Source: an uncultured Actinomycetota bacterium (GTDB lineage: Bacteria > Actinomycetota > Actinomycetes > Propionibacteriales > Nocardioidaceae). Taken from it: a DNA stretch of 64,000 nucleotides. Made by a program: the position numbers and the translations under genes. The notes below the pieces were generated by a model, which ran no database searches, was not told where the DNA came from, and saw nothing but the letters and a program-made list of their open reading frames with translations. Numbering within the stretch: position 1 is the first letter of the stretch; each line of letters opens with the position of its first letter. This document shows, piece by piece, positions 790 through 39,727 of the stretch. The stretch spans positions 1,194,895 to 1,258,894 of the forward strand of contig CAVUMY010000002.1 in NCBI GenBank assembly GCA_963742765.1, read 5' to 3'.

Positions 790-846
790 CCCCGCAGAGG
801 AAAGACCGCGCACAGGGAGACCGCGCAGACACCACGCGGACATAGG

Positions 847-2999: not shown

Positions 3000-3139
3000 C
3001 GACCGGGGAGGCCGGGGCGGTCACGCCCCGGCCTCCGTTCGTCCACAGATCCCTGAGCCGGACGTGGTCGCACTTGCGTCCCGGGGTACCTTGACCGTCG
3101 ACGCGGTGGAAGTTCCGCCGTGCTCACTGTCTCTGGAGC

Positions 3140-4720: not shown

Positions 4721-4810
4721 CCGACGCCAAGGATCCGGGTGTTGCATGGCCTGGGCCGCGAAACACCCGGATCTTGACGCCTCCCCGGGTCAGTGATCAG
4801 TGTTGTTTGA

Positions 4811-5218: not shown

Positions 5219-5347
5219 CGGTGACCTCCGGGGAAGGCGATCTGGCTGGTCTCTCGTCTGGTCCAAGGTGTATCGGTGGCCACCGACAGTCGGCGGCCGC
5301 GTGGTCGGCTCGCCCGCATCGGACCCTGGCGGCGTACGCCGAGGGAA

Positions 5348-5379
5348 TCGAATACACGTTCGATCGAACACATGTTTGA
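5348..5379. promoter_or_regulatory. two abutting LexA (SOS) boxes
   Basis: TCGAATACACGTTCGA (5348-5363) is immediately followed by TCGAACACATGTTTGA (5364-5379). Both match the actinobacterial consensus TCGAAC-N4-GTTCGA with 1 mismatch each. Confidence 0.75.
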
Positions 5380-5416
5380 ACCGTAGCAGTCCGGCGCGAC
5401 ATTTCTCGGGAGGTGG

Positions 5417-5432
5417 TCGAACGCGTGTTCGA
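5417..5432. promoter_or_regulatory. LexA (SOS) box upstream of the SRPBCC gene
   Basis: TCGAACGCGTGTTCGA is a perfect match to TCGAAC-N4-GTTCGA and ends 38 nt before the 5471 ATG. Confidence 0.75.
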
Positions 5433-5470
5433 TCGGCGCGTCGCGCAGCGCCGGGTAGCGTGGACGTGTG

Positions 5471-5899
5471 ATGACCCTTTCGCGGACCGTCCAGGTCGAC
5501 AAGCCCATCAGTCGCGTCTACGCCTATCTCAGCGACTTCACGACGAGCGAGGAGTGGGACGCCGGCACCGTGCGGACCACCCGCGTCAGCGGGGACGGCA
5601 GCGTCGGGACGACCTACGCCAACACCTCACGTTTCTTCGGCCGCGAGACCGACCTCACCTACGTCATCACCGCGCTCGAGCCCGAACGCACGATCGCGCT
5701 GCGCGGCGAGAACAAGACCGTGGTCGCCAACGACACCATCGTGCTGACCGGCGACGAGCACCACACCCAGGTCGTCTACACGGCCCAGTTCGAGTTCCAA
5801 GGGTTCGTCAAGTACCTCGAGCCACTCCTCACCCTGACGATGAAGCGCTTCGGCGACGACGCCCAGGCCAGCTTGCAACAGGCGCTGCGGAAGCTCTAA
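5471..5899 (+). CDS. SRPBCC-family (polyketide cyclase/dehydrase-like) protein
   Basis: 142 aa. The N-terminus TLSRTVQVDKPISRVYAYLSDFTTSEEWD is typical of SRPBCC/START-like proteins. The track ORF starts 3 nt earlier at a GTG. Confidence 0.7.
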   Translation: MTLSRTVQVDKPISRVYAYLSDFTTSEEWDAGTVRTTRVSGDGSVGTTYANTSRFFGRETDLTYVITALEPERTIALRGENKTVVANDTIVLTGDEHHTQVVYTAQFEFQGFVKYLEPLLTLTMKRFGDDAQASLQQALRKL

Positions 5900-5967
5900 G
5901 GCCTCTCGGGGCCGCCGAAACCGGTGTCGACGGCCCGTCCTGGTCGCCCGGGTCGCAACACGCCGAT

Positions 5968-6116: not shown

Positions 6117-6869
6117 ATGGCCAAGACGGCGAAGAAGGCAAAGCCGGCCACCGATGCTGCTGCCGGTACCTCGGTACGCGAACTGCCGGACGGCCCACCC
6201 GACGCCACCGGTCTGACGCCGCGCCAACGCCGCGTGCTTGCCGTCATTCGTGACTCGGTCGAGGCGCGCGGCTACCCCCCGAGCATGCGTGAGATCGGGC
6301 AGTCCGTCGGCCTCACCAGCTCGTCCTCGGTGGCCCACCAGCTCCGCGTCCTGGAGACCAAGGGCTACCTCCGTCGTGACCCAAACCGTCCGCGGGCGGT
6401 CGAGGTGCTCATGCCCGACAGCCAGCCCCGACGCTCCGTCGGTTCAGCCACCGAGTCGTCGTACGACGAGACCGGCAGCGGCGACGCCAGGCCGGAGGCC
6501 GTCTTCGTGCCGATGGTCGGCCGGATCGCGGCCGGCGGACCGATCCTGGCCGAGGAGCGTGTCGACGAGATGTTCCCCATGCCGCGGCAGCTCGTCGGCG
6601 ACGGCACCCTCTTCCTGCTCGAGGTGGTCGGCGACTCCATGGTCGACGCGGCCATCTGTGACGGCGACTTCGTCGTCATCCGTCAGCAACCCACCGCCGA
6701 GAACGGCGAGATCGTGGCGGCGATGATCGACGGCGAAGCCACCGTCAAGACGCTGCAGAAGAAGGCCGGCAAGGTGTGGCTGATGCCGCACAACGACGCC
6801 TACGAGCCGATCGACGGCACCGACGCCTCGATCCTCGGCAAGGTCGTCACCGTCATGCGCCGGATCTGA
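6117..6869 (+). CDS. lexA: LexA repressor
   Basis: 250 aa. Winged-helix segment [54 protein letters not shown]24 peptidase part includes the AAG cleavage region, GDSM, and the Lys region GEATVK. Confidence 0.95.
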
Positions 6870-6941
6870 CGCCTCCCACGTTTGCACACCCGCCTGGGCG
6901 GGAACGTCCTTCGACAACGACCGTTGCCGTAGGAGGTGCCC

Positions 6942-7214
6942 ATGCCGGGCCGCAAGAAGCCGGGACCATCCGTCAAGGATGACAAAACGTACGAAGCGTT
7001 GCGCGGCGGGGGTGCCAGCAAGGAGAAGGCCGCCCGGATCGCGAACGCCTCCGCCAGCCAGGGCCGCTCGACGGTGAGCAGACGAGGCGGCAAGGCCGGT
7101 GACTACGAGGACATGAGCAAGCAGCAGCTCTACGACCGCGCGAAGAAGGTTGGCATCGACGGTCGGTCGTCGATGTCCAAATCCCAGCTCATCGACTCGC
7201 TCCGCAACCACTGA
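6942..7214 (+). CDS. small basic protein with Rho-termination-factor N-terminal-like (SAP-like) C-terminal domain
   Basis: AGGAGG lies 5 nt upstream of the ATG at 6942. The C-terminus MSKQQLYDRAKKVGIDGRSSMSKSQLIDSL resembles the Rho_N/SAP helix-extended-helix motif. Confidence 0.65.
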   Translation: MPGRKKPGPSVKDDKTYEALRGGGASKEKAARIANASASQGRSTVSRRGGKAGDYEDMSKQQLYDRAKKVGIDGRSSMSKSQLIDSLRNH

Positions 7215-7225
7215 CCGCACGCGGC

Positions 7226-8536
7226 TCAACCCACGTGGGCGCCCCGCTCTTTCTCCGGCGCGTCCTCGGGCAGGGTCGGCAGATAGACGGTGACCCGGGT
7301 CAGCCCGTCCTGGACCCCCGTGGTGAGCCGTCCACCTTCGGCTTCCGCGAGTGAGCGGGCCAGGGCGAGACCGCGCCCCTCGCGCGGCCCCTGGGTGTCG
7401 GTGTCCTCGACGCGGACAGGGCCGCTCCCATCGGCGGCTCCTTCGTCGAGGATGTCGATGGCAACCGCACCCCCGACGTCACGGGCATGGATCTCCACCA
7501 CGCCGCTCCCGTGGCGATAGGCATTGTCGACGAGGGTCTGCACGACCTGGCGGGCGGCCGGCAGCGACGCGACCACCACCGCACCCTGATCCCCGCGCAG
7601 GCGAAGCGGGCGATCCTGAGCGGCCAAGGTGCCGTGCCATGCCTCCCGCACCCCATCGAGGAGTGCCTCGACGGAGAACGATCCGTTGCCGCCGTCGCCG
7701 CGGGCGACCGCCAAGACATCGTCGACGGTCTGCCCCAGGACGTCGGCCGACGCCAGCGCCTCCTGGACGGCCAGCCGAAGGTCATCGGGCTCACCCTCGA
7801 GACCCCTCTCGAGCTCGAGTCGTAGTCGCGTCAGCGGCGTACGCAACTGATGGGATGCGTCGGCGGTGAATGACCGTTGCCGAGCGATCAGCGCGGACAG
7901 CCGGTCAGCCGTACCGTTCAGCGCGGCACCGGCTTGATCGATCTCCGCGATGCCGCTCGGACCGGCGCGGGCGCCGAGGTTTCCGTCCCCGAGCTCCGTC
8001 GACACCTGCTCGAGCTCGATCAGCGGACGCACCAGCACCGTGCTGAGCCGCCGGGCGAGCAGCAACGCCGAAGCCGCGGCGATGATCGCGATCCCAGCCA
8101 TCCCCGCCCACAGCCACCACACGCGATGCTGGACCACCGACGATGGAGATGACGCGCGTACGACGGCGATCACCTGCTCCCCCGAGCTGACGGGGACAGC
8201 TGCCGCCAGCACCCCATTGCGACTGTCGACGGGAACTCCGTTCAGCGCGTCCCTGAGCGGCTGATCGAGCTGCGCAGGGCCGCGGCCGGTGATCCTCGTT
8301 CCGGCGGTGTCGTAGACCGCGAGCTGCACCGCTGCTTCGGTGCTCGGCAGCTCGATCGGGTCGCCGGACGCAAAGGTCGGGCCAACGTCGACCGCCGCCC
8401 CCAAGGCCAAGCGCTCGAGCTCTCCTTGTTCGTCCGACAGCACCATCCGCTGGACCAGGATCGCGAGGGGAACGCCGAAAACGGTCACCGCCAGCGTCAC
8501 GGCCGCCAAGGCCACCGTGACGATCCGTCTCCGCAT
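7226..8536 (-). CDS. sensor histidine kinase
   Basis: Internal ATG at 8536 (MRRRIVTVALAAV...) chosen within an over-extended 666-aa track ORF. Two TM segments, an H-box FTADASHQLRTPLTRL, and a C-terminal HATPase region (DNAYRHG, GRGLALA). Confidence 0.85.
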   Translation of the reverse strand: MRRRIVTVALAAVTLAVTVFGVPLAILVQRMVLSDEQGELERLALGAAVDVGPTFASGDPIELPSTEAAVQLAVYDTAGTRITGRGPAQLDQPLRDALNGVPVDSRNGVLAAAVPVSSGEQVIAVVRASSPSSVVQHRVWWLWAGMAGIAIIAAASALLLARRLSTVLVRPLIELEQVSTELGDGNLGARAGPSGIAEIDQAGAALNGTADRLSALIARQRSFTADASHQLRTPLTRLRLELERGLEGEPDDLRLAVQEALASADVLGQTVDDVLAVARGDGGNGSFSVEALLDGVREAWHGTLAAQDRPLRLRGDQGAVVVASLPAARQVVQTLVDNAYRHGSGVVEIHARDVGGAVAIDILDEGAADGSGPVRVEDTDTQGPREGRGLALARSLAEAEGGRLTTGVQDGLTRVTVYLPTLPEDAPEKERGAHVG

Positions 8537-8720
8537 CTGGCGCCCTCCGCCCGCTCGACTCACCTCATTGTGTCCCTCGGACTGCGCCACGCACCGCGAT
8601 CGATGCCGGCGAGAACGAAATTTTGCCCTCCTCTTACCTGCAGGTGGCAAGCGGCTGGCCGACGTCGTCCTAGCGTCGAAGAGGAACACGCGAGAGCACT
8701 CCGAGACCACAGGAGCACCG

Positions 8721-9401
8721 ATGACAGCACCCCGTCTGGCCACCGCAACCGGCGTTCTGGCCGCGACCCTGCTCCTGGCCCTGGCGGCGTGCTCGAGCAC
8801 GGCGCCACATGCGACACCGACCCTGAGCACTGCCCCGACCGGCGGTGGATCAGCCAGCGGGACGCCCACCCCGCAGTCCCTACAGACGTCGTCCCCGACG
8901 ACGCCGAGCGGCCCGGCGCCGGCCACGGAGTTCAACCCACCTGGCGACATCCCTGACAACCAGGTGTTCGTGAAGTACCGGCCGCCGGGCAGCACGGTCA
9001 CCATCCAGGTTCCGGAGGGTTGGGCGAGGTCGACCCAGGCGGGCACCGTGACATTCACCGACCACTTCAACTCGGTCGGGATCTCCGAGCGATCGGCGTC
9101 CACGGCGCCGACCGAGCAGTCGGCCATGCACCACGACGTGCGCGCGATCGAACATGCCAACGCGAACGTCAAGGCCGTCCACGTCTCGATGATCACCCGC
9201 GCGGGCCAGCAAGCGGTCCTGATCACCTACCAGGCCGACTCCAAGCCGGATCCGGTGACCAACAAGGTCGTGGTCGATGCTGTCGAGGTCTATGAGTTCT
9301 TCCACCAGGGCCATGAGGCCGTGCTCACCCTGACCGGACCTTCGGGCGCCGACAACGTCGACCCGTGGCGCACCGTGAGCGAGTCACTCGCATGGTCATG
9401 A
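8721..9401 (+). CDS. lipoprotein of unknown function, first gene of the ABC operon
   Basis: ATG at 8721. Signal plus lipobox LLLALAAC|SS, followed by a Pro/Thr/Ser linker. The stop overlaps the next start (ATGA). Confidence 0.65.
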   Translation: MTAPRLATATGVLAATLLLALAACSSTAPHATPTLSTAPTGGGSASGTPTPQSLQTSSPTTPSGPAPATEFNPPGDIPDNQVFVKYRPPGSTVTIQVPEGWARSTQAGTVTFTDHFNSVGISERSASTAPTEQSAMHHDVRAIEHANANVKAVHVSMITRAGQQAVLITYQADSKPDPVTNKVVVDAVEVYEFFHQGHEAVLTLTGPSGADNVDPWRTVSESLAWS

Positions 9402-10084
9402 CGATGCCCGGACCGACGGCACTGACGACGGAAACACCCCTGCGAGCTCGCGAGCTGTACCGGTTCTTCCGAGCGGGAGAAGAGGAGACGCTGGCCCTGC
9501 AAGGCGTCTCGCTCGACCTGAGTCGGGGCGAGCTCGTCGCCGTGGTCGGACCGTCGGGCTCGGGGAAGTCGACCCTCCTCAACCTGCTGGCCGGGCTCGA
9601 CGAACCCTCCGGCGGCACCGTCTGGCTCGGCGGCCTACGGATGAGCCACCAGCCCGAGACCGTAAAAACAGAGTTGCGGTCGCGGCAGCTAGGCGTCCTC
9701 CGGCAAGCAGACAACCTGCTCCCCTACCTCAACATCCGGGCGAACCTGACCATCCTGGCCAGAGTCCGGGGAGTCGACGGTCACGAGGACGAGCTCCTCG
9801 AGTCGCTCGGTATCGCCGGCCAGGCGAGGTCGCTGCCACACCAGCTGTCCGGTGGCGAGCTGGCCCGTGCCGGCCTCGCCTGTGCACTGGTGGGAAGCCC
9901 GCCCGTCCTGCTGGCCGACGAGCCGACAGGAGAGCTCGACGGAGACACCGAGGACGTCGTGCTGGAGCTGCTCCGCCACCAGGCAGCTCAGGGTGTTGCG
10001 GTCCTCGTCGCCAGTCACAGCCCCGCTGTTCATCGCCTGGCTGACCGGGTCGTGGAGCTGCTCGACGGACGGGTACGCCGATGA
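9398..10084 (+). CDS. ABC transporter ATP-binding protein (MacB/FtsE-like)
   Basis: Walker A GPSGSGKST, signature LSGGE, Walker B LLADEPTGELD. ATGA overlaps with both neighbours. Confidence 0.9.
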   Translation: MTMPGPTALTTETPLRARELYRFFRAGEEETLALQGVSLDLSRGELVAVVGPSGSGKSTLLNLLAGLDEPSGGTVWLGGLRMSHQPETVKTELRSRQLGVLRQADNLLPYLNIRANLTILARVRGVDGHEDELLESLGIAGQARSLPHQLSGGELARAGLACALVGSPPVLLADEPTGELDGDTEDVVLELLRHQAAQGVAVLVASHSPAVHRLADRVVELLDGRVRR

Positions 10085-28804: not shown

Positions 28805-30349
28805 CTAGGACGTGGTGCAGGCGGGCGTGTCGACCGTCGGGAGGTCAGTGGGTACGCCGATCGACGGCATGCCGAGCGAGACTCCACCGCCGGACGGCGA
28901 GCCGCTCCCACCGGACGTGGCGCCACCGCCTCTAGTTCCAGCGGTCGCCCCGGAGGTGCGGGCCTCCCAGGCGTCACCCGCACGGGTTCGACGCACGGCC
29001 GTCACCGGGGTGTCGCTGACCAGGTGGTGCGGCGCGCCATACGTCACGTCGACCTCGACCACGTCTCCGGGGCGCACCGTCACCGAGGGGTCCGGGACGA
29101 AGTGCACGAGCCGGTTGTCGTGCGCCCGGCCGGACAGCCGCGCCTTGGCCGCGTCCTTGCGACCTTCCCCCCCGGCGACCAGCACCTCGAGGCGCCGGCC
29201 GACCAGCCGCTTGTTCTCGTCCCACGCGATCTCGTTGACGAGGTCGACCAACCGCACGTACCGCTCCTGCACCATGTCATGCGGGAGCTGATCGTCCATC
29301 GTGGCTGCGGGCGTCCCGGGCCGCTGGGAGTACAGGAACGTGAACGCTCCGCTGAACCGCGCTTCCCGCACGAGCGACAACGTCTGCTGGAAGTCGTCCT
29401 CGGTCTCGCCCGGGAAGCCGACGATGATGTCCGTCGTGATGGCGGCCTCGGGGATCTGCTCGCGCACGCGGTCGAGGATGCCGAGGTATCGATCGCGGCG
29501 GTAGGACCGGCGCATCGCCTTGAGCACCGTGTCGGACCCGGACTGAAGCGGCATGTGCAGCGAGGGCATCACGTTGGGCGTCTCGGCCATCGCCGCGATC
29601 ACGTCATCGGTGAAGTCACGCGGATGTGGTGAGGTGAACCGCACCCGCTCCAGGCCCTCGATCTCGCCGCACGCCCGCAGCAGCTTGCCGAACGCCTGCC
29701 GGTCGCCGAACTCGACGCCGTAGGAGTTGACGTTCTGGCCGAGCAGAGTGACCTCGATGACGCCCTCGCCGACCAGGGCCTCGACCTCGGCGAGCACGTC
29801 ACCCGGCCGGCGATCCTTCTCGGTCCCGCGCAGCGACGGCACGATGCAGAACGTGCAGGTGTTGTTGCACCCCACGCTGATCGCCACCCAGGCGGCGTAC
29901 GCCGACTCGCGGCGGGTCGGCAGCGTCGACGGGAACACTTCGAGCGACTCGAGGATCTCGACCTGCGCCTCGCGGTTGACGCGCGACCGCTCGAGCAGGG
30001 CCGGCAAGGAACCGATGTTGTGCGTACCGAAGACGACGTCGACCCAGGGCGCGCGTCGGGTGATCTCGGACCGGTCCTTCTGCGCCAGGCAGCCGCCGAC
30101 GGCAATCTGCATGTGCTTGTCGGCCGCCTTGCGCGGGGCGAGCTGGCCGAGGTTGCCGTACAGCTTGTTGTCGGCATTCTCGCGCACGGCACAGGTGTTG
30201 AAGACGACGACGTCGGCGTCAGTGCCCGGCGTCGCCCGCAGGTAGCCGGCGTCCTCGAGCAGGCCGGACAGCCGCTCGGAGTCGTGCACGTTCATCTGGC
30301 AACCGTGGGTCCGCACCTCGTACGTGCGGGGCTGGGCGTTTGGTTTCAT
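28805..30349 (-). CDS. miaB: tRNA-2-methylthio-N6-dimethylallyladenosine synthase; first ~7 codons supplied by the inserted element
   Basis: ATG at 30349 ([25 protein letters not shown]...). Contains the UPF0004 N-domain, the radical-SAM motif [11 protein letters not shown], a TRAM-like C-terminal part, and a Gly/Ser-rich tail. Confidence 0.92.
30107..30334. repeat. attL (miaB-derived direct repeat, left copy)
   Basis: Aligns without gaps to 35978-36205 at an offset of 5871 nt. The core 30228-30328 is 101 nt of perfect identity. There are 11 substitutions overall. Confidence 0.9.
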
Positions 30350-30368
30350 CAGACGAAAAGAGTATCTG

Positions 30369-31115
30369 GTGACCATCCGAGCACAGTTGGACCGCACGGC
30401 AATAGAGAAGGGGCTTCGGCAGAGCACTTACCTCTCGTACCTCAGACTCCTTGGCAGCTTGGGGATTCTCGACATGGAGACAGTGTCGGAAGACGAGGTG
30501 TTTTCACGCCTTTGGGCGCTTGAGAACCCCAACACGCGCCGCGCCGCCGTCATTGCCGTGAGGTCCGTGCTCGGCTTCAAGATGCGAATTCCCAAGGCCG
30601 TGCCTCGTCGGTATCAGCTGGAGTCCGAAGACACCCTGAGAATGGCTCTGATGCTGTCGCCGCATGAGTCCCGGGGACTGCTGATGATGTACGCGGGCCT
30701 GCGCATCGGAGAGGCGTGCGCAATCACGGGGAAGGACCGTGCAGGCGATAGACTGCGCGTAGACAAGCAGGTCCAAGAGTTGTACCAGACCGGCAAACCT
30801 CGTTCAGTCACGGTCGGCCCGGTCAAGACAAATGAGGCCAGCATCGTCATCCCGCACTGGTTGGCTCCGTACATCGACGCTCTGGACCAACGCCCTATAC
30901 CGTCATCTGTCCGAGAGTCACTCCGCCGTGCTGGAAGCAAGCTCGGCATACACCTCAACCCGCACATGCTCAGGCACTGGTACTGCACGACGTTGCTGGA
31001 ACGCGGTGTTTCCCTTGCCCTCGTGTCGCGTCAGATGAGGCACAGTGATGTAGCCGTGACGCTGAGGACCTACGCACAGACCAACGACGGAGATATCCAC
31101 AGAGCAATCGGCTGA
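30369..31115 (+). CDS. tyrosine recombinase/integrase (small, XerC/D-like)
   Basis: Catalytic signature GLRIGEA (Arg I), HMLRHWY (His-x-x-Arg II), and [13 protein letters not shown] (His...Tyr). The start is uncertain: GTG at 30369, or GTG at 30324 inside attL. Confidence 0.85.
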
Positions 31116-31535
31116 GGAAATCCCGCAAGGTACGGCTGGCTTCGAGACAGACGATGACGCGTCCACCGGAGGCCCGTCATTCACTGTCTTCTTTCGCCCT
31201 CATAGTGCAGTCTATTGGTACACATTCATCTACCAGCGCAACGTTAGAAAATTCCGGAGACGGACTAAACAGCGCCCTTCGCCGGGCATCTGCCTAGGGA
31301 TAGTGCGCACACAGATGACGCCGCCGGCTGGTCCCTAAGACAGGACCTAGCAGACCTCACCTTCCCCACTAGTCCCGTTCTGTCTCACCTGCAACGAGAT
31401 GCTTGCACCCTTACGGCGTCTCCGCTCACACTTGGGCAAGTGGAGTAGTTACACCGTTGTAGTTCTCCACGTCAAGTGCCCGTCCAAGTCTTGTCGGGTA
31501 CACCAGCATCACGAGAAGAAAGGTAGGCAACGAAG

Positions 31536-31700
31536 ATGAGGTGCCAAATTTGGAGGTCCACGAGCGGACAGTTCTTCGTCCGGGTCGTGGCGAGCAACGG
31601 GGCGATTCTTGCCCACAGTGAAACCTACGTGGCGAAGGTGGACGCACGTACCTGCGCCAACATCATCGCCAACGGAGGCACGGTTGAGGACAACGCCTAG
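31536..31700 (+). CDS. DUF1508 (YegP-like) small protein
   Basis: 54-aa ORF below the track threshold: MRCQIWRSTSGQFFVRVVASNGAILAHSETYVAKVDARTCANIIANGGTVEDNA. It matches the YegP repeat pattern (..G.y.F.l.a.NG.il..Se.Y..k......i..v). GAAAGG lies upstream. Confidence 0.6.
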   Translation: MRCQIWRSTSGQFFVRVVASNGAILAHSETYVAKVDARTCANIIANGGTVEDNA

Positions 31701-31723
31701 CTGCTGAGTCCTGTAAGCCGCGA

Positions 31724-31774
31724 GGCCCGAAGACGCGTCCGGATGCTTGACGGTCATCTGGAAGTCTTCGGGCC
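31724..31774 (+). terminator. long hairpin between the DUF1508 and recombinase genes
   Basis: GGCCCGAAGAC (31724-31734) pairs perfectly with GTCTTCGGGCC (31764-31774), with a 29-nt loop. It could be a terminator or a regulatory structure. Confidence 0.3.
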
Positions 31775-31854
31775 TTCGCGTTCTCAATCTAGCCCCTGGA
31801 CATCGCTATCGCCGGCTCAAACTCGAAATCCCTCCGAGCCTCGTTGACCGTGTG

Positions 31855-31882
31855 CATACATTAATCGTCCGTTTAATGTATG
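31855..31882. promoter_or_regulatory. 28-bp palindromic site immediately upstream of the serine recombinase gene
   Basis: CATACATTAA-tcgtccgt-TTAATGTATG has perfect 10-bp arms and ends 8 nt before the ATG at 31891. TTGACC lies at 31844-31849. Confidence 0.45.
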
Positions 31883-31890
31883 CTGTGGAC

Positions 31891-32556
31891 ATGAAGAAGC
31901 GAGCAGAAAAGGTCATCGGCTACCTCCGGGTGTCTACCGAGGAGCAGGCAATCAGCGGTCTCGGCCTGGCCGACCAGCGAGCAGTCATCGACGCAGAGGC
32001 CTCACGTCGTGACTGGTCTGAGGTGGAGTACTTGGCTGATGAGGGGTACTCAGCAAGGAACTTGTCGCGTCCAGCCATCTCGACAGCGCTCGATGCACTC
32101 CGCACGGGCGATGCCTCGGTGCTGGTCGTCTCGAAACTTGACCGGCTCTCTCGTTCGCTGCTGGACTTCGCCACCTTGATGGAGCGGGCGAACAAGGAGG
32201 GGTGGCAGTTGGTCGTTCTCGACCTGGCGCTTGACACCACCAGCCCATCAGGACAACTTATGGCCAACGTGATGGCGTGCTTCGCACAGTACGAGAGGCA
32301 ACTCATCGGAGCCAGGACCAGTGCGGCTCTCCAACAGTTGAAGAGGCAGGGTGTGCGACTTGGCCGACCCCGTTCGCTACCGGCCGCCGTTGTGGAGCGC
32401 ATAGTGGCGGAACGTCAGTCAGGAAGGACGATGGCAGCCATTGCCGATGGTCTTAACTCGGACGATGTGGCTACCGCACGTGGGGGAGCGCGTTGGTATC
32501 CGTCGACCGTCAAGGCTGTGCTCAGGTCCGCCCAACTGGATGCCAAGGCTGCCTGA
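31891..32556 (+). CDS. small serine recombinase (resolvase/invertase type)
   Basis: ATG at 31891. Catalytic N-terminus VIGYLRVSTEEQ, then VSKLDRLSRS and FAQYERQLIGARTS. The C-terminal part has GGARWYPSTVKAVL. Confidence 0.9.
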   Translation: MKKRAEKVIGYLRVSTEEQAISGLGLADQRAVIDAEASRRDWSEVEYLADEGYSARNLSRPAISTALDALRTGDASVLVVSKLDRLSRSLLDFATLMERANKEGWQLVVLDLALDTTSPSGQLMANVMACFAQYERQLIGARTSAALQQLKRQGVRLGRPRSLPAAVVERIVAERQSGRTMAAIADGLNSDDVATARGGARWYPSTVKAVLRSAQLDAKAA

Positions 32557-32638
32557 CAAGTCACTTACATCCGATGAGCGGTCAGGGCGCTCGGGGGCAA
32601 TCCACGAAAATGGCGAGGAAGAGGTCGTACCTCACAAG

Positions 32639-32968
32639 ATGACACTAGGAGCGGCTGAGACTGCGAAGCGGGTCCCGCCGACGACTCTCGTGACCACCGT
32701 CCTGGTCTTTGTGAACCTTGTGGCCGTCTACATCGAACTGCTTCTCGTGCTGGCGCACTATGAAGACCATGAGACGACCAACTATCTCCTACCCCAAGAC
32801 ATTTGGTTGCCGTTTATGACGTTGGTTCTTGGGCAGAGCCTCGTGAACGGGCTACTCCTTCTGACGTCGCCCAGAGTCCGCCGAATCGGCGCAGGCCTGC
32901 TGCTCGGAACAATGGGCGCCGTCGCTGCCTGGCTCTGCTGTGTAGCAGTGTTCGGGCCGGGCTCCTGA
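32639..32968 (+). CDS. small membrane protein (3 predicted TM segments)
   Basis: Internal ATG at 32639 (MTLGAAETAKRVPP...). Hydrophobic stretches LVTTVLVFVNLVAVYIELLLVLA, LPFMTLVLGQSLVNGLLLL and GLLLGTMGAVAAWLCCVAVF. Confidence 0.45.
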   Translation: MTLGAAETAKRVPPTTLVTTVLVFVNLVAVYIELLLVLAHYEDHETTNYLLPQDIWLPFMTLVLGQSLVNGLLLLTSPRVRRIGAGLLLGTMGAVAAWLCCVAVFGPGS

Positions 32969-33094
32969 CGGCGTCCGGACTTGCGGGCGTGGGCTCTGAA
33001 CTCCTAACCCGCCTGTTTGTCACTGCCCATCGTGGTGGGGTTGTGACTCTCTGCCAAGCCCTCTACCATGACACCACGCTAGGCTCCCTAGCGT

Positions 33095-33121
33095 CAGATA
33101 AATAAAGTGGGACCGGGGTCC
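33095..33121 (-). terminator. intrinsic-terminator-like hairpin plus T-tract on the minus strand
   Basis: The minus strand reads GGACCCCGGTCC followed by CACTTTATTTATCTG. It lies directly after the stop of the 33127-33294 candidate ORF. An 8-bp hairpin, ACGCTAGG-ctc-CCTAGCGT, lies next to it at 33076-33094. Confidence 0.4.
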
Positions 33122-33126
33122 AGCGA

Positions 33127-33294
33127 CTATTTTCTGGGCCTCGAAACAGTCTTACGCTGCTTCCTACGCTTAACTGATGGGTTCCGCCCAGTTGATTGGG
33201 GAAAGGTCTTTACCTGCCGTCGATGCGAACCCAGTGCATTAACCTTTTCATCTAGAGCGGTGTGGCCGCCATAGGTGGAGGTTGCGTACGTCAT
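33127..33294 (-). CDS. candidate 55-aa basic protein (very tentative)
   Basis: AGGAG lies 10 nt upstream of the ATG at 33294. Sequence: MTYATSTYGGHTALDEKVNALGSHRRQVKTFPQSTGRNPSVKRRKQRKTVSRPRK. The stop abuts the minus-strand terminator. No family recognised. Confidence 0.25.
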   Translation of the reverse strand: MTYATSTYGGHTALDEKVNALGSHRRQVKTFPQSTGRNPSVKRRKQRKTVSRPRK

Positions 33295-33560
33295 CGGCCG
33301 CAATCTCCTGGCGGTACGTCTTGAAGTTGCCTGCCCTGCCACTGAACATTCAATTTCTAACTTCCTGTTCACTTTTCCTGTTCAGCACAAACCAGCGGCA
33401 TGATGTACTTTACATATTCTTCCTCCAAGGGTCATAGATAGTTTTTCCTTTCTTTAGATACCTCGCTACGCTCGGGCACACGCTCTCTTCGTTCGCATGT
33501 GGCTTCTTTACTTTCTTTCAGTCTCATCTTTTCAGTCAGGGGAACGTAGTGACCCTGACC

Positions 33561-33590
33561 GGACGCTTGCGTCCGTTCTTTTCTTTCCTT
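33561..33590 (+). terminator. intrinsic-terminator-like hairpin plus T-tract on the plus strand
   Basis: GGACG-cttg-CGTCC followed by GTTCTTTTCTTTCCTT. It is preceded by a second hairpin, GTCAGGG-N11-CCCTGAC (33535-33559). Confidence 0.4.
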
Positions 33591-34164
33591 GTATATCTAT
33601 TTTTGGACAAGGCTATCCCTTGTAGGGACTTTTTATTGTCCAGCCTAGAGGTCGCTAACACTTTTCTAGGTAGCATTCCTGCTACGTGCTTAGGGCAAGT
33701 TACTTTACATCCAACCCGGTTACCACCACGTCTGGTTATACCGCCAGACCTGCTCGGTGGGGGCATAAAAAGTGTCCCCTGCAAGAACCGACTAAAGACC
33801 ATGCAGGGGACCAAACGATTCGCTTGAATCTATTAACGAGCGTCTTTCTGCTAGTCGGTTGCTTACATCTTCAAGTATACAGTAGAATGTCGGGTCTGTC
33901 AAGTTAAGACATGTTATAGGTAACTAGTTATAAATGACTTATATACGCCCTAGTTATGGCATTCGCTAGAAGGGCCATGATTTGAGAAAAATAGGGGGTC
34001 GACCTCTGGTCCGCCCGCTATCTATTAGGCGCTTAGACGGGCACGCAGAGCCTCCTAGCGTGCATCTAGCTTCCATAGGGCCAGAGATGCCATTGCTGAA
34101 AGTGGTGTAGTCCATGTGGTTAGCAAGGCGGCCGCATGAAGTGCTAGGAGAGGCTCAACGTCTC

Positions 34165-34584
34165 CTAGTTCACTCGTTCGAAGACTCCAACAACGCGGTC
34201 ATCGGCGTTGTAGAAACGCAGTTGGTCTCCTCCTAGGGATACGCGCACAACTGTGAGCATCGGGTTCGCCGCCGCCTTGACGCCATCCCAGCGAGAACCG
34301 CATCCGATTTGTGTACTTCCGAACGTCGGTATCACTGTCCCATCGGCAAGTAGGTCAAACTGCCCGCCAGCCGAATTGCAAGCGAAGGGCGCATCCCAAG
34401 TCAGCTGACCGTTCAACCGACTGAAGTCCAGACGGTCTAAGTTGCTCGGACGTGACTCGTCAACGGTGACGAGTTTGCCCTCTAGCTGGACCGCCTGCCA
34501 CGTGCCGATGAGTTCGTCCTCGGTCGGAGCCCTTGCCCTCAGTCCGGTCCGGTCGTGGGGCCGCTCACCGTGAGAATCGCGCAC
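34165..34584 (-). CDS. META-domain (HslJ-like) protein; start uncertain
   Basis: LIGTWQAVQLEG...FACNSAGGQF...GSTQIGC fits the META pattern (GxW...GCN..xGxy...T.maC). The only ATG overlaps the upstream gene by 46 nt. Confidence 0.5.
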   Translation of the reverse strand: MRDSHGERPHDRTGLRARAPTEDELIGTWQAVQLEGKLVTVDESRPSNLDRLDFSRLNGQLTWDAPFACNSAGGQFDLLADGTVIPTFGSTQIGCGSRWDGVKAAANPMLTVVRVSLGGDQLRFYNADDRVVGVFERVN

Positions 34585-35150
34585 GCCTTAGCGCTGGCGT
34601 TGGCGGTGCACAACAGATAGGGGCCGGCGGATGTGTCGGGAACAACAATCCGGTCCGGACCGGGACCGCTGACACCTATGTCGAACCAGCCCTTGTTTGC
34701 GCCGTTGTCGACGCGCCACCAATCCGGCTTCCAGCCAAGCCCGTCGCCGCCGTCTGACGTCAAGTAATACTCCGGGTCGGCCCAGGCGCTTCCGGTCCAC
34801 GAGGCGAGCGAGTACGCAACCCCTCTGCTACTGGTCGAAGGGAAGTGCATCGCAACAATGGCACCTGGTGGCGCGGTCGACGGTTCGAGCGTCATAGTGC
34901 CCTGCCATCGGCTGTCGAGCGTTGGCTCAGTCGCGTCCGCCGGCGCCGGGCCGCCATTCGCACCTGGACGGATGAGGAGCGCAACCCCAATGACGGCGAC
35001 TAGAGCGGCGGTGGACAGAGACGCGGCGAGGACCGAGCGTCGCCGCCTCATGTGCTGACCCTCTCGGCGGGCTTCCTCTATCGGGGCATGGCCGACCTCG
35101 ATTTGCTCGACCCGTTCGGCCAGCCTCGTCCTGACCTCTGACTCGTTCAT
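34539..35150 (-). CDS. single-pass membrane protein downstream of the element ECF sigma (putative anti-sigma)
   Basis: ATGA overlap with the sigma gene. TM segment VLAASLSTAALVAVIGVALLI and an extracytoplasmic domain of unknown family. Confidence 0.55.
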   Translation of the reverse strand: MNESEVRTRLAERVEQIEVGHAPIEEARREGQHMRRRRSVLAASLSTAALVAVIGVALLIRPGANGGPAPADATEPTLDSRWQGTMTLEPSTAPPGAIVAMHFPSTSSRGVAYSLASWTGSAWADPEYYLTSDGGDGLGWKPDWWRVDNGANKGWFDIGVSGPGPDRIVVPDTSAGPYLLCTANASAKACAILTVSGPTTGPD

Positions 35151-35653
35151 GTTGGACTCCTGTCTGGTCCGCCTGCGAGGTGCCGACTCGCGGCCAGTTG
35201 CCGAAGGGCCCTGGACTGTCTGCTCTTGACCGTGCCGACCGGCAGACCAAGAGCGGCCGCTGTCTCGGCCTCCGTGAGGTCCGCGTAGAACCGAAGCACG
35301 ACGACTGCTCGTTGGCTGTCGTCCAGGTCTCGTAGGGCGCGGTCGACAGCGTCGGACCGGTCCACAGCCTCGGCCGGCTCCGCACTGGTCGCGGGTTCTG
35401 GCATGACTGCCGTCGGTCGCTCACCCCACCAGCGACGACGGCGACTGTCGTTGTAAGCATTCACCAGAACCCTGTACACGTATGCCTCTCGGTCATCGGC
35501 GCGCGCGACCTTCGACCACGACATGTAGCAGCGGGCCAGTGCCGTCTGGGCGATGTCCTCGGCATCGTGCGGTGAGCAGCCCAGCAGCACGGCGGTGCGT
35601 ACCAGCGCAGGCCAGCGCGCCGACATGTAGGCGGCGAACTCCTCGGCGTCCAC
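35147..35653 (-). CDS. ECF sigma factor (SigE-like subgroup) carried by the element
   Basis: 168 aa. Region 2 (DAEDIAQTALARCYMSW, EAYVYRVLVNAY) and region 4 (AVVVLRFYADLTEAETAAALGLPVGTVKSRQSRALRQL). Confidence 0.88.
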   Translation of the reverse strand: MDAEEFAAYMSARWPALVRTAVLLGCSPHDAEDIAQTALARCYMSWSKVARADDREAYVYRVLVNAYNDSRRRRWWGERPTAVMPEPATSAEPAEAVDRSDAVDRALRDLDDSQRAVVVLRFYADLTEAETAAALGLPVGTVKSRQSRALRQLAASRHLAGGPDRSPT

Positions 35654-35682
35654 GGGCCCCCAATCTGTCCTGACACCACAAT

Positions 35683-35709
35683 GACGGGTCAGGAGGCGTC
35701 AAGGGTTCC
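35683..35709 (-). promoter_or_regulatory. ECF-type promoter candidate upstream of the element sigma gene
   Basis: The minus strand reads GGGAACC-N16-CCGTC (GGAAC...CGTC). It lies 30-56 nt upstream of the sigma ATG, consistent with an autoregulated ECF promoter. Confidence 0.3.
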
Positions 35710-35965
35710 CCTTGCGTACAAAACGTGTCAGGTTGGCCTGGCGGGTGGACAGGAGTGAACACCGATGTCGCAGATGCACCCCGCGGATTCGTCAGCACCC
35801 GCCGCAGTGCCCTCGCGTTGGTTTTCCAGTGAACAACCCCCCTGTCGCCGGAGCATTCCAGTCCGTCAAACGGCTCCTGAGGCCTTCCCAGAGGGTGCTC
35901 CGGGCTGGCTTCGACGGCATGGCGGTCGACTCAGGTAGAGTCCCATCTACAAATCCACACTGAAA

Positions 35966-36229
35966 CTAAACGCTGCGCTGCATGTGCTTGTCGGCCGCCT
36001 TACGTGGGGCCAGCTGGCCGAGGTTGCCGTACAGCTTGTTGTCGGCGTTCTCGCGGACGGCGCAGGTGTTGAAGACGACGACGTCCGCGTCCGTACCGGG
36101 CGTCGCCCGCAGGTAGCCGGCGTCCTCGAGCAGGCCGGACAGCCGCTCGGAGTCGTGCACGTTCATCTGGCAACCGTGGGTCCGCACCTCGTACGTGCGT
36201 GGCTGCGCTGCCGTGGGAGTCGCCGTCAT
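35966..36229 (-). pseudogene. miaB: native 5' fragment of miaB left behind by the insertion
   Basis: 87 codons: [32 protein letters not shown]...AADKHMQ, then RSV-stop. It is identical at the protein level to residues 6-81 of the intact gene. Confidence 0.88.
35978..36205. repeat. attR (miaB-derived direct repeat, right copy)
   Basis: See attL. The perfect core is at 36099-36199. Confidence 0.9.
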
Positions 36230-36254
36230 AACCGCCCCAGCCTAAGCGACCGCA

Positions 36255-36308
36255 CCGAGTTGTCAGAACCGAGCCGGCCTATGGCGCTACTGGGTTCTGA
36301 CAACTCGG
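36255..36308. repeat. family-2 hairpin element, copy 2
   Basis: CCGAGTTGTCAGAACC-N22-GGTTCTGACAACTCGG has perfect 16-bp arms. It lies 25 nt upstream of the native miaB ATG (36229) and 5 nt downstream of the VOC gene stop. Confidence 0.9.
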
Positions 36309-36313
36309 ACGGG

Positions 36314-36715
36314 CTATTCGCCGGGGTAGTCGCCGAAGCTCCACTGGTTGCCTTCGGGGTCCTGGACGACGAAGTTGCGGCCGCCGTAGTCCTGCGCGGT
36401 CAGCGGTCGGACCACCTTCGCCCCGGCCGCCGTCGCGCGCGAGAAAAGCTCGTCGAGGTCGATCGTGTCATCCACGACGCAGTACGCCGAGGCGTGGCCG
36501 GTCGGGTCGGTCATGCCGTCGGGGCGCGGCCCGGAGCCGAGCATGATGCCGCCACCCGGCGGCCAGTCCAGCTGGGCGTGCATGATCTTCGTGGGGTCCG
36601 ACTCGTCGTAGTAGACCCCATGGGCGACGAAGCCGAAGGCGGCGGACAGGAACTCGACGGCGGCCGGCGCATCGCGGTAGCTCAGCGAGTGCCACACGGT
36701 GGGAGACGGGCTCAT
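36314..36715 (-). CDS. VOC (glyoxalase/bleomycin-resistance) family protein
   Basis: 133 aa with the paired beta-alpha-beta-beta-beta pattern (VWHSLSYRDAPAAVEFL...FVVQDPEGNQWSFG). One-nt TGATG overlap with the AraC gene. Confidence 0.8.
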   Translation of the reverse strand: MSPSPTVWHSLSYRDAPAAVEFLSAAFGFVAHGVYYDESDPTKIMHAQLDWPPGGGIMLGSGPRPDGMTDPTGHASAYCVVDDTIDLDELFSRATAAGAKVVRPLTAQDYGGRNFVVQDPEGNQWSFGDYPGE

Positions 36716-37596
36716 CAGGACTCCTTCAGGTTCGGGTCGAAGCGGATGACTTCAGCATCTCCGCCAGCGCCCGCGCCGTCTTGAACGAATGGGAGCTCGG
36801 CCCGGATCCACTCCCCCGGCGTGTATCCACACAGGTCTCGCCACTCGCGCGTCATGTGCGCCTGGTCAGCGAACCCACAGGCAAAGCCGACCTCGGCGAT
36901 CGGCTGCGCCAGCTGTCGCATCATGGCGTGCGACCGTTCGAAGCGCGCGAGCCGCCGCGCGTCCGTGGGGGACAGCCCGGTCTCCGCGCGGAACTGCTCA
37001 CCCAGGTGGCGACGGCTCCAGCCGACATCGGACGCCACCTCCGCCACGCGCGGCGCAGCACCGCCGGGTCCGGTCAACCGTGCCCAGGCGTGCGCCACCT
37101 CGGCCCGGGCGGGCTGGGTGTCCTCGCCGACGGCTGCCAGCTCGGTCAGCCCTCGACCGAGCGCCGCGAACCGTTCCGGCCAACCGGCCGCGTCCGCCAC
37201 GACGTCGTACAGCCGGCGGCCCCGGGCACCGAGAACGTCATCGACGGACACCAGCTGACCCTGCACAGCGGAGGCAGGTAGCCCCAGGAGCAGCCTGGCA
37301 CCTGCGAGCGTGAGGCCGAGCGAGATGCCCTCCTGCCGGCCCCACTGGCGGACATCTGCGGCCTCGACCGACAGGCCCGACACGACTGCCCAGAAGCGCT
37401 GCTGAGTCTCGGCGCGCCCGTACCACCCCACGTCGAGCGGCTGACCGAAAGCGAGCACGACCGTCAAGGTCGTGGACGGCATGCCGCGGTGGGCGGTCTG
37501 GGCACCCGCGTCGTAGCAGTAGCCGGACGCCTGCGTGACGTACGGACGCAGCGCAGCGGGCGGCCGCCACGAAGCCCCGCGACCCAACTCGGACAC
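36715..37596 (-). CDS. AraC-family transcriptional regulator
   Basis: C-terminal HTH region SDVGWSRRHLGEQFRAETGLSP...GFADQAHMTREWRDLCGYTP. A GTG start at 37596 was chosen so that the repeat element is not translated. The track ORF extends to 37665. Confidence 0.78.
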   Translation of the reverse strand: MSELGRGASWRPPAALRPYVTQASGYCYDAGAQTAHRGMPSTTLTVVLAFGQPLDVGWYGRAETQQRFWAVVSGLSVEAADVRQWGRQEGISLGLTLAGARLLLGLPASAVQGQLVSVDDVLGARGRRLYDVVADAAGWPERFAALGRGLTELAAVGEDTQPARAEVAHAWARLTGPGGAAPRVAEVASDVGWSRRHLGEQFRAETGLSPTDARRLARFERSHAMMRQLAQPIAEVGFACGFADQAHMTREWRDLCGYTPGEWIRAELPFVQDGAGAGGDAEVIRFDPNLKES

Positions 37597-37616
37597 ACCC
37601 CGAGCGTACGACGATT

Positions 37617-37670
37617 CCGAGGTGTCAGAACCCAGTCGGCCTATAGCGCTACCGGGTTCTGACAAGTCGG
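37617..37670. repeat. family-2 hairpin element, copy 3
   Basis: CCGAGGTGTCAGAACC-N22-GGTTCTGACAAGTCGG. It lies 20 nt upstream of the AraC GTG and 1 nt downstream of the oxidoreductase stop. Confidence 0.85.
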
Positions 37671-37671
37671 G

Positions 37672-38604
37672 TCAGACGGTGACGACGACCTTGCCGCGCA
37701 CGTGACCGGCCCTGTTGGCCGCCAACGCGTCACCGGCGCGGTCGAGAGGGAACTGCTCGGCGATCTCCACCCGCAGCGACCCGTCGGCGACCAGCGCGAG
37801 CAGGTCGGCCAGCATCGGGCCGTTCGGCCGGACGAAGATGTAGCGCCCACCCAGCTTCTTGACGGTGTCGGCGTCGACGATCGAGCCAAGACGGCCGCCG
37901 TCCGCGAGCACGTCGGGGGCGGACTCGAGCGAGTCGCCACCGATGAAGTCCAGCACCACGTCCACGCCGTCGGGAGCGACCTTGCGCACGTTGGCGGTCA
38001 GCTCGGCGGCGGATTCGCCGTACTCGACGGGCTCGGCACCGATCGAGCGGACGTAGTCGTGGTTGCGGGCGCTCGCCGTGCCGATCACGCGAGCACCACG
38101 CAGCTTCGCCAGTTGAACGCCGATACCGCCGACGCCGCCCGCGGCCGCATGCACGAGCACCGTGTCACCCTCGCCGACCTCAGTGGCGTCGATGAGCTGC
38201 TGGGCAGTCAGGCCGACCAGCGGGAGCGCGCCGGCGCTGACGAGGTCGACACCGTCCGGCACCTTGGCCACCGCGCGGATGTGCGCGGCCACGAGCTCGG
38301 CAAACGTTCCGTTCTGCACATGGTCCTTGCGGTTGTAGGCCGCCACCCGGTCTCCCGGAGCGACCTCGGTCACTGCGGGTCCGACGGCGACGACCTCGCC
38401 GGCGACGTCCCAGCCGGGGATCAGTGGCAGGTGATGCGGGAAGGCGCCCTGCAGGTAGCCGGCCACGACCTTCCAGTCGACGGGGTTCACCCCGGCAGCA
38501 GCGACCTTGATCAGGACGTAGTCGGGGCCGACCAACGGGTCGTCGACCTCTGCGGTCTCGACGACGTCAGGGTCTCCATAGGCTCGAATCACAGCGGCTC
38601 TCAT
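37672..38604 (-). CDS. NADPH:quinone oxidoreductase / zinc-type alcohol dehydrogenase-like (MDR) protein
   Basis: 310 aa. N-terminus MRAAVIRAYGDPDVV and Rossmann motif VHAAAGGVGGIGVQLAK. Confidence 0.88.
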   Translation of the reverse strand: MRAAVIRAYGDPDVVETAEVDDPLVGPDYVLIKVAAAGVNPVDWKVVAGYLQGAFPHHLPLIPGWDVAGEVVAVGPAVTEVAPGDRVAAYNRKDHVQNGTFAELVAAHIRAVAKVPDGVDLVSAGALPLVGLTAQQLIDATEVGEGDTVLVHAAAGGVGGIGVQLAKLRGARVIGTASARNHDYVRSIGAEPVEYGESAAELTANVRKVAPDGVDVVLDFIGGDSLESAPDVLADGGRLGSIVDADTVKKLGGRYIFVRPNGPMLADLLALVADGSLRVEIAEQFPLDRAGDALAANRAGHVRGKVVVTV

Positions 38605-38683
38605 GTCACGGCCAACACGAGAGCCGCTGTGATATTCCGGCTGGGCGGCCGGTGCGACTCAGGTCACGCGGCGTACGTGGCTC

Positions 38684-39727
38684 TCAGCCGCTCGAGCCGA
38701 GATCACGACCAGGGCCGAACCAGTGCGCCCGATCGAGCGTGCAGACGACCTCGGTGTCGACGCCCTCCCCGCTCACGCTGGGCGCGTCGATCCAGTTCCC
38801 GGCCACGAACCCACACTTGGCCAGCGCCCGCAGCGACGCGGCGTTGCGGTGGTCGGGGCTGGCGACGAAGCGAGGTGCGTCCGGGTAGGAGGGCACGAGC
38901 ACGTCCCGGCAGAACGTCCAGATCATGCGCGTCCCGATCCCCTGCCCGACCAGGGCAGGGTCGCCCAGCACGTAGTCGAAGCCGATGGCGTCGGGGTCCC
39001 CGGTCTTGACGGCGTACTCGTCGTAGTCGCCGACGCGGTAGGCCTGTACGTAACCCACAGCCAGACCGTCGATCTCGACCACCCACATCCGGGTGGGGTG
39101 CTCACCCTCGATCCGCGGTCCGTAGCGCTCGCGAGCAGCTGCCGGTGTCATCGCGTCACCGTGGAACCACCGAGCGGCGTGCGGCGCCTGCTGCCAGGCG
39201 ACGACCGCAGTCAGGTCGTCGTAGCGCATCGGCCGGAACGACACCGCGATCGTGGGGACGCTGGAACCCCGCCCGACCTGGCCGTCGGCCACCCAGCCCG
39301 GCAACAGGCGCTCGCGGCAGGCCTCGGGTGGCAACCACTCGTAGCGATCGTGCTCCGGATCGACGAGGTCGATCTCGGTCTCGCGCTCGACGTCGGCGCC
39401 GAAGATGGCCCAGTGGTACGGCGGCAGGCCTTCCCGCGGAGGCGCCGACAAGGAGAGATCCAGTGCGAAGACGTCCAGACCGGTCAGCCCGGCCTCCTCC
39501 GCAAGCTCGCGGAGTGCGGCGGGATACACGGCTTCGCCGGGCTGCCGCGATCCGGCCGGGGCAGTCCACGCCCAGTCGCCCTCGTAGTCGGGACCGTAGT
39601 GGTTGCGATGCAACAGCAGCAGCTCGACCGCCCCGGCGGTCGTCCGCCGGCGGACGACCACGGTCGCGCCGCGGGGATCGTCGGCTGCGATCTCCAGGCC
39701 GTCCCAGGTATGGGTGAGATCGGTCAT
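38684..39727 (-). CDS. NUDIX hydrolase fused to a GNAT (aminoglycoside-6'-N-acetyltransferase-like) domain
   Basis: N-terminal Nudix box PAGSRQPGEAVYPAALRELAEEAGL. The C-terminal half (FRPMRYDDL...GQGIGTRMIWTF...NAASLRALAKCGF) is GNAT-like. Confidence 0.7.
   Translation of the reverse strand: MTDLTHTWDGLEIAADDPRGATVVVRRRTTAGAVELLLLHRNHYGPDYEGDWAWTAPAGSRQPGEAVYPAALRELAEEAGLTGLDVFALDLSLSAPPREGLPPYHWAIFGADVERETEIDLVDPEHDRYEWLPPEACRERLLPGWVADGQVGRGSSVPTIAVSFRPMRYDDLTAVVAWQQAPHAARWFHGDAMTPAAARERYGPRIEGEHPTRMWVVEIDGLAVGYVQAYRVGDYDEYAVKTGDPDAIGFDYVLGDPALVGQGIGTRMIWTFCRDVLVPSYPDAPRFVASPDHRNAASLRALAKCGFVAGNWIDAPSVSGEGVDTEVVCTLDRAHWFGPGRDLGSSG

Follow-up and report, generated by a model that had tools for sequence, protein, structure and literature searches.

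It is in the miaB gene of an uncultured actinomycetote of the Nocardioidaceae where we located a 5,871-bp inserted mobile element, within the 64,000-nucleotide stretch of DNA that was analysed as a whole and that we call the window. The intact miaB lies on the minus strand (28805-30349) and scores 453 bits with the TIGR01574 MiaB equivalog model, against a cut-off of 355. Its 5' end is duplicated by two 231-nt direct repeats, 95% identical and 5,871 nt apart, that form the boundaries of the element: the left repeat (30107-30337) is the element-borne miaB 5' end, which now serves as the working 5' end of the gene, and the right repeat (35978-36208) is part of the displaced host miaB 5' remnant, an N-terminal fragment of 87 aa on the minus strand (35966-36229). 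These flanking repeats, together with the gene map, confirm that the AT-rich segment studied here is located inside an integrated element, as an earlier note made from the sequence alone had claimed.

The plus-strand operon of the element begins with a tyrosine integrase divergent from miaB (30324-31115; PF00589, E = 4.5e-14), continues with a DUF1508 protein (31536-31700) and a small serine recombinase of the resolvase/invertase type (31852-32556; PF00239, E = 6.7e-37), and finishes with an orphan hydrophobic protein of 109 aa (32639-32968) that has a coding signature (G+C of 0.65/0.44/0.71 by codon position) and whose sole match in the homology search was itself. Converging on it, the minus-strand operon (34165-35653) encodes a SigE-family ECF sigma factor (35147-35653; TIGR02983, 161.7 bits vs. 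a cut-off of 141.55), a putative anti-sigma factor (34539-35150), and a META-domain protein (34165-34584). According to profile searches, the gene content of the element consists of recombinases and cargo, without transfer genes, and none of its genes matched a replication-protein family. The two convergent operons leave between them an ORF-free, AT-rich gap of about 1.2 kb (32969-34164; 1,202 nt in the survey of gaps) with a G+C of 0.50 and without any coding-like ORF; the segment that the earlier note had placed at 33100-34160 is real, and the true gap extends slightly beyond it.

Composition and coding potential of the gap

The drop in G+C described before was reproduced, with 0.49 in 33100-34160 against 0.68 for the window, and the lowest 100-nt bins are those of 33901-34000 (0.37) and 33401-33700 (0.44-0.46). 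The AT-richest spacer (33903-33985, about 37% G+C) contains the palindrome TAACTAGTTA (33921-33930) and two copies of CTAGTTAT (33924 and 33950), and the pyrimidine skew of the plus strand is likewise present, amounting to 62-67% pyrimidines in 33301-33600. Regarding the tetramer CTAG, the 13 copies counted previously are obtained when the range is widened to 33071-34170, the strict range of 33100-34160 having 10; against dinucleotide shuffles, these counts correspond to 13 vs. 6.4 ± 2.3 (p = 0.007) and 10 vs. 5.9 ± 2.2 (p = 0.06), respectively, and several other tetramers of the segment likewise have an observed/expected ratio near 2.4. CTAG stands out more clearly when the segment is set beside the host DNA, which has 27 CTAG where 166 are predicted from base composition, a six-fold avoidance that the segment does not share. 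The description of the segment as AT-rich, non-coding, and compositionally foreign is therefore upheld, its composition and oligonucleotide usage being unlike those of the host and its location being inside a mobile element. No self-similarity of the segment was found elsewhere in the window.

The segment is also as poor in ORFs as had been stated, since the four overlapping ORFs of 73-92 aa do exist and carry no coding signature. The candidate ORFs of the gap have a flat G+C by codon position (about 0.5/0.5/0.5), and the genuine genes of the element show a GC3 of 0.65-0.80 and a GC2 of 0.44-0.60. The longest stop-free frame has 129 codons, a length matched by 19% of the shuffles that keep the local composition. 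A longer plus-strand frame of 194 codons with a single TAG (33243-33824) has a Phe/Leu-rich, membrane-protein-like translation; we considered it as a pseudogene and rejected it because its length is within chance in the local-composition shuffles (p = 0.09), and it should be remembered that a pyrimidine-rich strand has few stop codons and gives hydrophobic translations by default. Weak three-base G+C periodicity was seen at 33300-33480 and just downstream of the META gene.

Searches of six to ten frames of the segment per library against Pfam, PHROGs, and NCBIfam gave no match, and an exhaustive HMMER search of the 129-aa frame against 1.84 billion representatives retrieved nothing else than the ORF call of this same element. 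The gene-called ORFs of 92 and 55 aa in the segment are singleton clusters, and tblastn of an 84-aa frame against phages and plasmids was empty. The concatenated stop-free frames (1,182 aa) found nothing in a 5.8-billion-protein collection, a result to which we give no weight because the search also missed the segment's own ORF calls, which that collection contains. In the frames tested, we found neither residual homology nor a codon-position signature of a former gene.

Hairpins, a promoter-like site, and repeats

The hairpins reported at 33535-33559, 33604-33643, and 34144-34168 are all in the sequence. In sliding-window folding, the z-score falls to between -3 and -3.5 at four places, which coincide with terminator-like hairpins; 33340-33540 and 33820-33980 lie unstructured between them, a pattern that speaks against a single large folded RNA. 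Accordingly, the large structured RNA that the earlier note had listed among the candidate roles found no support: across the whole window, there was no match to the Rfam covariance models at the gathering score, and two chance eukaryotic matches (E about 8) were all that appeared at E <= 10. No tRNA was found in the segment.

On the plus strand, a terminator-like hairpin formed by CGGACGcttgCGTCCG and followed by a T-run lies at 33560-33585 (-10.6 kcal/mol, z = -2.8), and a nested terminator-like hairpin, also followed by a T-run, lies at 33604-33643 (-14.7 kcal/mol, z = -1.7), with outer arms TGGACAA/TTGTCCA and an inner TCCCTtgtAGGGA followed by CTTTTTATT; this is the second and weaker terminator-like site of the strand (33616-33637). 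The strongest terminator-like hairpin of the gap is on the minus strand (33811-33766), where GTCCCCTGCA and TGCAGGGGAC pair through 10-nt arms of 100% complementarity (-21.6 kcal/mol, z = -3.0) and are followed by ACUUUUUAU, a U run that ends at about 33766. Another, weaker one (34023-33984; -17.4 kcal/mol, z = -1.6) lies about 150 nt past the META gene on the same strand, with UAUUUUUCUC coming after it. These sites match the consensus of intrinsic terminators, that is, a G+C-rich stem-loop plus a T- or U-run downstream of a transcription unit, and their number, four to five vs. 2.2 ± 1.8 in shuffles, is not significant when taken alone.

The minus strand of the gap also has a sigma-70-type promoter-like site, TTGACA-17-TATACT (33902-33874), which agrees with the consensus at 11 of 12 positions. 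Among dinucleotide shuffles of the region, 1.7% score as high (p about 0.017), and no other sigma-70-type match occurs in 32500-34700. The site stands about 55 nt upstream of the strongest minus-strand terminator stem. Promoter and terminator motifs spaced 50-300 nt apart on one strand are what is looked for in a small RNA gene, and the pair found here would delimit a candidate small RNA of about 100 nt (33867-33766, minus strand), with both ends predicted from the motifs and a fold of -35.5 kcal/mol (z = -2.8). No homologue of this candidate was found, the diverged elements being devoid of the segment and the other copies being 99.8-99.9% identical.

Concerning repeats, the two direct repeats noted before, TTCCTGTTCA (33362 and 33375) and TTTCAGTC (33516 and 33530), are indeed present, each twice, and as 8-mers they are at chance level. 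In the segment, no repeat family exceeds two copies, and no tandem repeat was detected by Tandem Repeats Finder. With no such arrays, a single 8/9 DnaA box in place of a cluster, and no match to a replication-protein family, the proposal of an origin or iteron region was not sustained. Two palindromic sites were also considered as targets of the serine recombinase: the perfect 8-3-8 palindrome ACGCTAGGctcCCTAGCGT (33076-33094), about 110 nt after the last plus-strand gene, and a degenerate copy of it (34043-34061), 967 nt apart and bracketing the segment almost exactly; in addition, three of the four exact CCTAGCGT words of the window fall within the segment. A 16/21 match such as that between the two palindrome copies is, by our estimate, expected by chance in 1.4 kb. 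No site like that of 33076-33094 was found in 12 related loci that encode a homologue of the recombinase, which is 72-83% identical in 7 of them. We have rejected the pair as recombinase sites on both grounds, and the suggested recombinase target region, for which this palindrome was the lone candidate, is left without support. The suggestion of a sigma-factor target region fared no better, given that the ECF-type pattern GGAAC-N15-19-CGTC occurs at chance frequency overall and that its only matches are upstream of the sigma gene itself.

Copies and relatives of the element

The small serine recombinase is the conserved gene of a whole family of elements, with hundreds of homologues at 70-83% identity, mostly in Nocardioides and other Actinomycetota, many of them on contigs of 4-7 kb. 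By context look-ups and two collection scans, we recovered about 25 family members, which share an integrase of 38-84% amino acid identity and/or a serine recombinase of 52-83%; the integrase studied here is 84% identical to that of locus L086 and 63% to that of L002. Many members carry a miaB 5' fragment beside the integrase, several have both ends, and their sizes range from about 3.9 to 7.6 kb. At the position of the segment, the cargo varies among members and includes ImmA/IrrE with DUF4411, HEPN_LA2681, RelA_SpoT, or a sigma factor with a PASTA-domain partner.

The segment itself is missing from all of the approximately 25 related elements. The earlier note had called it the core of the element, a view that this absence contradicts, and had itself named a lack of conservation among related elements as evidence against its reading. 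By blastn and tblastx, the segment resembled none of about 110 fetched loci, which included the family members (L001-L003, L086-L089, and L090-L108), and it had no 12-mers in common with the AT-rich gaps of relatives beyond what shuffles give by chance; nor did the gaps of different family members share motifs in excess of the shuffles. No similarity was found in the INPHARED phage collection, nor by blastn among the 72,556 plasmids of PLSDB, a weak negative given the thin coverage of environmental Actinomycetota there. Of two 20-mers taken from the segment, one was absent from the JGI metagenome contigs and the other from IMG/VR.

The only other copies of the segment that were found belong to this same element, at 99.8-99.9% identity. 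One locus (L004) covers 30306-33436 and is 99.8% identical; the other (L085) covers the whole element at 99.9% identity, with six differing positions inside it, one of which is the length of a G-run within the segment (33429-33431). Identity falls to about 90% in the chromosomal flank of L085 and in its attR remnant, which derives from the host; as one would expect of host DNA, the differences become dense starting at 35987. An element that is 99.9% identical beside flanks of about 90% shows a recent move between species, and copies so near to identity after so recent a move make the segment too young to inform on selection. Its orientation is the same in the three assemblies that cover the left palindrome and in the two that span the whole segment.

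As a separate observation, other family members have AT-rich, ORF-poor gaps of their own, of 0.3-1.4 kb and not homologous to the segment; at least one of these gaps holds a plausible small gene, and the AT-rich dip of locus L018 is covered by ORFs with ATG starts. The recurrence of AT-rich gaps across the family might hint at a function tied to composition.

Interpretation and comparison with known systems

On balance, we consider it probable, without great confidence, that the segment consists of accessory or decayed non-coding DNA, specific to this lineage, in which two convergent transcription units terminate. The segment would be either of foreign origin or decayed until no gene is recognisable in it, and it would fill the meeting place of the two units, ending both of them. 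The plus-strand unit, made up of the integrase, DUF1508, serine recombinase, and orphan membrane protein genes, would be ended by the hairpins at about 33560-33640, and the minus-strand unit, comprising the ECF sigma factor, the anti-sigma factor, and the META protein, by those at about 34023-33984 and 33811-33766. Judging from its motifs, the promoter-like site of 33902-33874 may additionally drive a small RNA of about 100 nt up to the strongest terminator. The low G+C and the un-avoided CTAG would exist because this DNA is non-coding, foreign, and recently arrived, and the youth of the element, as seen from its 99.9% identity in a second genome, would mean that useless DNA has not yet been deleted. 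What counts against this reading is that the 1.2-kb spacer makes up 20% of a very small element, which is much to carry if it has no function, and that AT-rich gaps recur in other family members.

A reading that overlaps with the previous one takes the segment as the remains of one or two cargo genes that once stood at the operon ends, mutated past recognition and possibly silenced by an Lsr2-type protein. The equivalent positions of the relatives do hold intact cargo genes, some of them AT-rich, and the 194-codon, membrane-protein-like frame with its single TAG and the weak three-base periodicity point the same way; however, that frame does not go beyond the local-composition shuffles, homology was found in no frame tested and in no library, and a young element has had little time for total decay in place, which leaves this reading rather unlikely. 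We regard as improbable that excision, the recombinases, or the sigma-factor operon are regulated by a large structured non-coding RNA, or by several small RNAs, made from the segment. The near-consensus promoter just upstream of a strong terminator stem, the stable fold of the 100-nt candidate, and the four places with low folding z-scores argue for it, but the folding signals are local, with unstructured stretches among them, Rfam gave no match even at E <= 10, and the absence of the segment from relatives leaves no homologue for covariation.

It is quite unlikely, in our estimation, that the segment is a cis-acting hitch-hiking site, whether an oriT, a clt-like site, or a packaging site, recognised by a helper conjugative element or phage. 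Such a site would explain how an element encoding only recombinases and cargo moved between two species without transfer genes, the element being 99.9% identical in two genomes with flanks of about 90%, and no other non-coding, hairpin-rich stretch of the element is as large as the segment. Nevertheless, no helper element was identified, there is no similarity to PLSDB plasmids or INPHARED phages, and the related elements, presumably mobile too, lack a homologous segment. In actinobacteria, FtsK-like transfer relies on short repeats rich in G+C, and the segment has no array of them. A precedent exists in the oriT-only genomic islands, or iOriTs, which lack a relaxase and have been reported to be common (bioRxiv 10.64898/2026.01.13.699239). 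It would surprise us greatly if the segment turned out to be the replication origin of an excised circle, or an invertible or excisable cassette between serine-recombinase sites at 33076-33094 and 34043-34061, even though it is AT-rich, bracketed by these palindrome-like sites, and home to most of the CCTAGCGT words, and even though recombinases about 45% identical to this one occur on Nocardia and Rhodococcus plasmids of 5.8-7.6 kb. The lack of a replication-protein match, of repeat families with more than two copies, of tandem arrays, and of more than one 8/9 DnaA box speaks against an origin; the chance-level similarity of the two sites, the absence of the site beside recombinases of 72-83% identity, and the constant orientation of the segment speak against a cassette. 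More generally, we see a slim chance that the segment is something new, either a cis-acting transfer or packaging site that lets the element spread, or an element-specific regulatory RNA (33867-33766, minus strand) controlling excision or the convergent ECF sigma-factor operon, and either would account for an element that is 99.9% identical in two genomes about 10% apart.

Taken alone, the segment is of little consequence, an orphan among sequences of a familiar kind: an AT-rich non-coding piece with candidate terminators and perhaps one small RNA. More interesting is the element around it, a member of an abundant family of integrative elements of Actinomycetota, 4-8 kb in size, that targets the 5' end of miaB, combines a tyrosine integrase and a strongly conserved small serine recombinase, and swaps its cargo, some of which is defence-module-like (ImmA/IrrE with DUF4411, HEPN, RelA/SpoT, and ECF sigma/anti-sigma pairs). 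In the literature searched, we found no description of this miaB-targeting family. If the segment were the site or the RNA by which such a minimal element moves, it would offer a handle on how these elements spread.

Several known systems resemble parts of this arrangement. The segment is like the AT-rich, horizontally acquired intergenic DNA of high-G+C actinobacterial elements, the targets of Lsr2-type silencers, in that it is about 20 G+C points below its host, lies within att-type repeats, does not avoid CTAG, and is non-coding; unlike such targets, it sits between convergent operons and not at a promoter. With the Rho-independent termination zones of convergent operons, it shares G+C-rich stems and T-runs facing each other on both strands, whereas its length of about 1.2 kb is far beyond the need of termination and its nearest terminator-like sites are 150-600 nt from the stop codons. 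The small RNA genes that run from promoter to terminator, including those embedded in 3'-UTRs, have their counterpart here in near-consensus -35 and -10 elements downstream of the META operon and about 55 nt before a terminator stem, although neither a homologue beyond the near-identical copies nor an Rfam family was found for this candidate. The iOriT islands (bioRxiv 10.64898/2026.01.13.699239) are comparable as regards a small element without transfer genes that moved between species and has one sizeable non-coding region, but the segment shows no oriT similarity to known plasmids and its relatives do without it. Finally, the islands with dusA-specific integrases insert into a tRNA-modification gene at its 5' end and make that gene whole again (PMC4482086), just as the element described here enters the 5' end of miaB and restores it with an element-borne copy; the two differ in target gene, integrase family, and phylum, and the present element is far smaller and carries an additional, conserved serine recombinase.

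Probable recent transfer of the element, and its miaB-targeting relatives

A second genome from metagenome data carries the integrated element at 99.9% identity (window 30319-36258 against positions 1-5942 of locus L085), whereas the chromosomal flank of that locus (window 36295-39688 against 6432-9857) and the displaced host miaB remnant at its attR end share only about 90% identity. This comparison of sequences points to the element having recently crossed from one species to another, although it encodes no transfer functions.

In Actinomycetota, elements of 3.9-7.6 kb integrated at the 5' end of miaB form an abundant family, seen here at window 30107-36208 and at loci L002, L086, L088, L089, L093, L095, L096, L101, and L102, where miaB is restored by a copy of its 5' end carried on the element. 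The family members encode a tyrosine integrase together with a small serine recombinase (about 221 aa) that is highly conserved, and their cargo is variable, comprising ImmA/IrrE with DUF4411, HEPN_LA2681, RelA_SpoT, or an ECF sigma factor partnered by a PASTA or META protein. Members also differ in which side of the recombinase the cargo lies on and in which direction it is oriented.

The AT-rich gap and the orphan gene preceding it

On the 5' side of the AT-rich gap lies a gene for a hydrophobic protein of 109 aa (window 32639-32968), which has a clear coding signature and for which a search of 5.8 billion protein clusters returned no homologue except itself. Inside the gap, the window reads GGG at 33429-33431, and the two other copies of the element, L085 and L004, read GGGG; given that two independent Logan short-read contigs terminate at about 33436-33438, we suggest that the populations sampled are truly polymorphic at this site. 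At 33410-33427 the purine-rich minus strand also carries a Shine-Dalgarno-like GGAGG and, 6 nt after it, a start-stop mini-ORF, ATG-TAA.

Regulatory-like sequences outside the gap

An ECF-type promoter-like motif, GGGAAC-N18-CGTC (35683-35709, minus strand), stops some 30 nt short of the start codon of the sigma-factor gene, on its upstream side, and is likely an auto-regulated promoter of that gene, but matches to this pattern are no more frequent in the window than chance predicts. Directly 3' of the integrase gene, a 44-nt patch (31203-31246) is 77% identical to positions 1002-1045 of L086, the closest relative, and the remaining intergenic region downstream of the integrase is not alignable between the two; this patch may have a role in regulation or in recombination directionality. 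Further out, an inverted repeat of 19 nt, 95% complementary and with a 16-nt loop (36255-36308), sits directly upstream of the displaced remnant of the miaB 5' end, where the native leader or promoter of miaB lies.

The serine recombinase and small plasmids

The small serine recombinase of the family shows 70-83% identity over hundreds of metagenome proteins. Very small actinobacterial plasmids, namely the 5,841-bp NC_013538.1 from Nocardia and the 7,616-bp NZ_CP017302.1 from Rhodococcus, carry serine recombinases about 45% identical to that of the element, and this likeness hints that the family recombinase may derive from, or behave like, a plasmid multimer resolvase.
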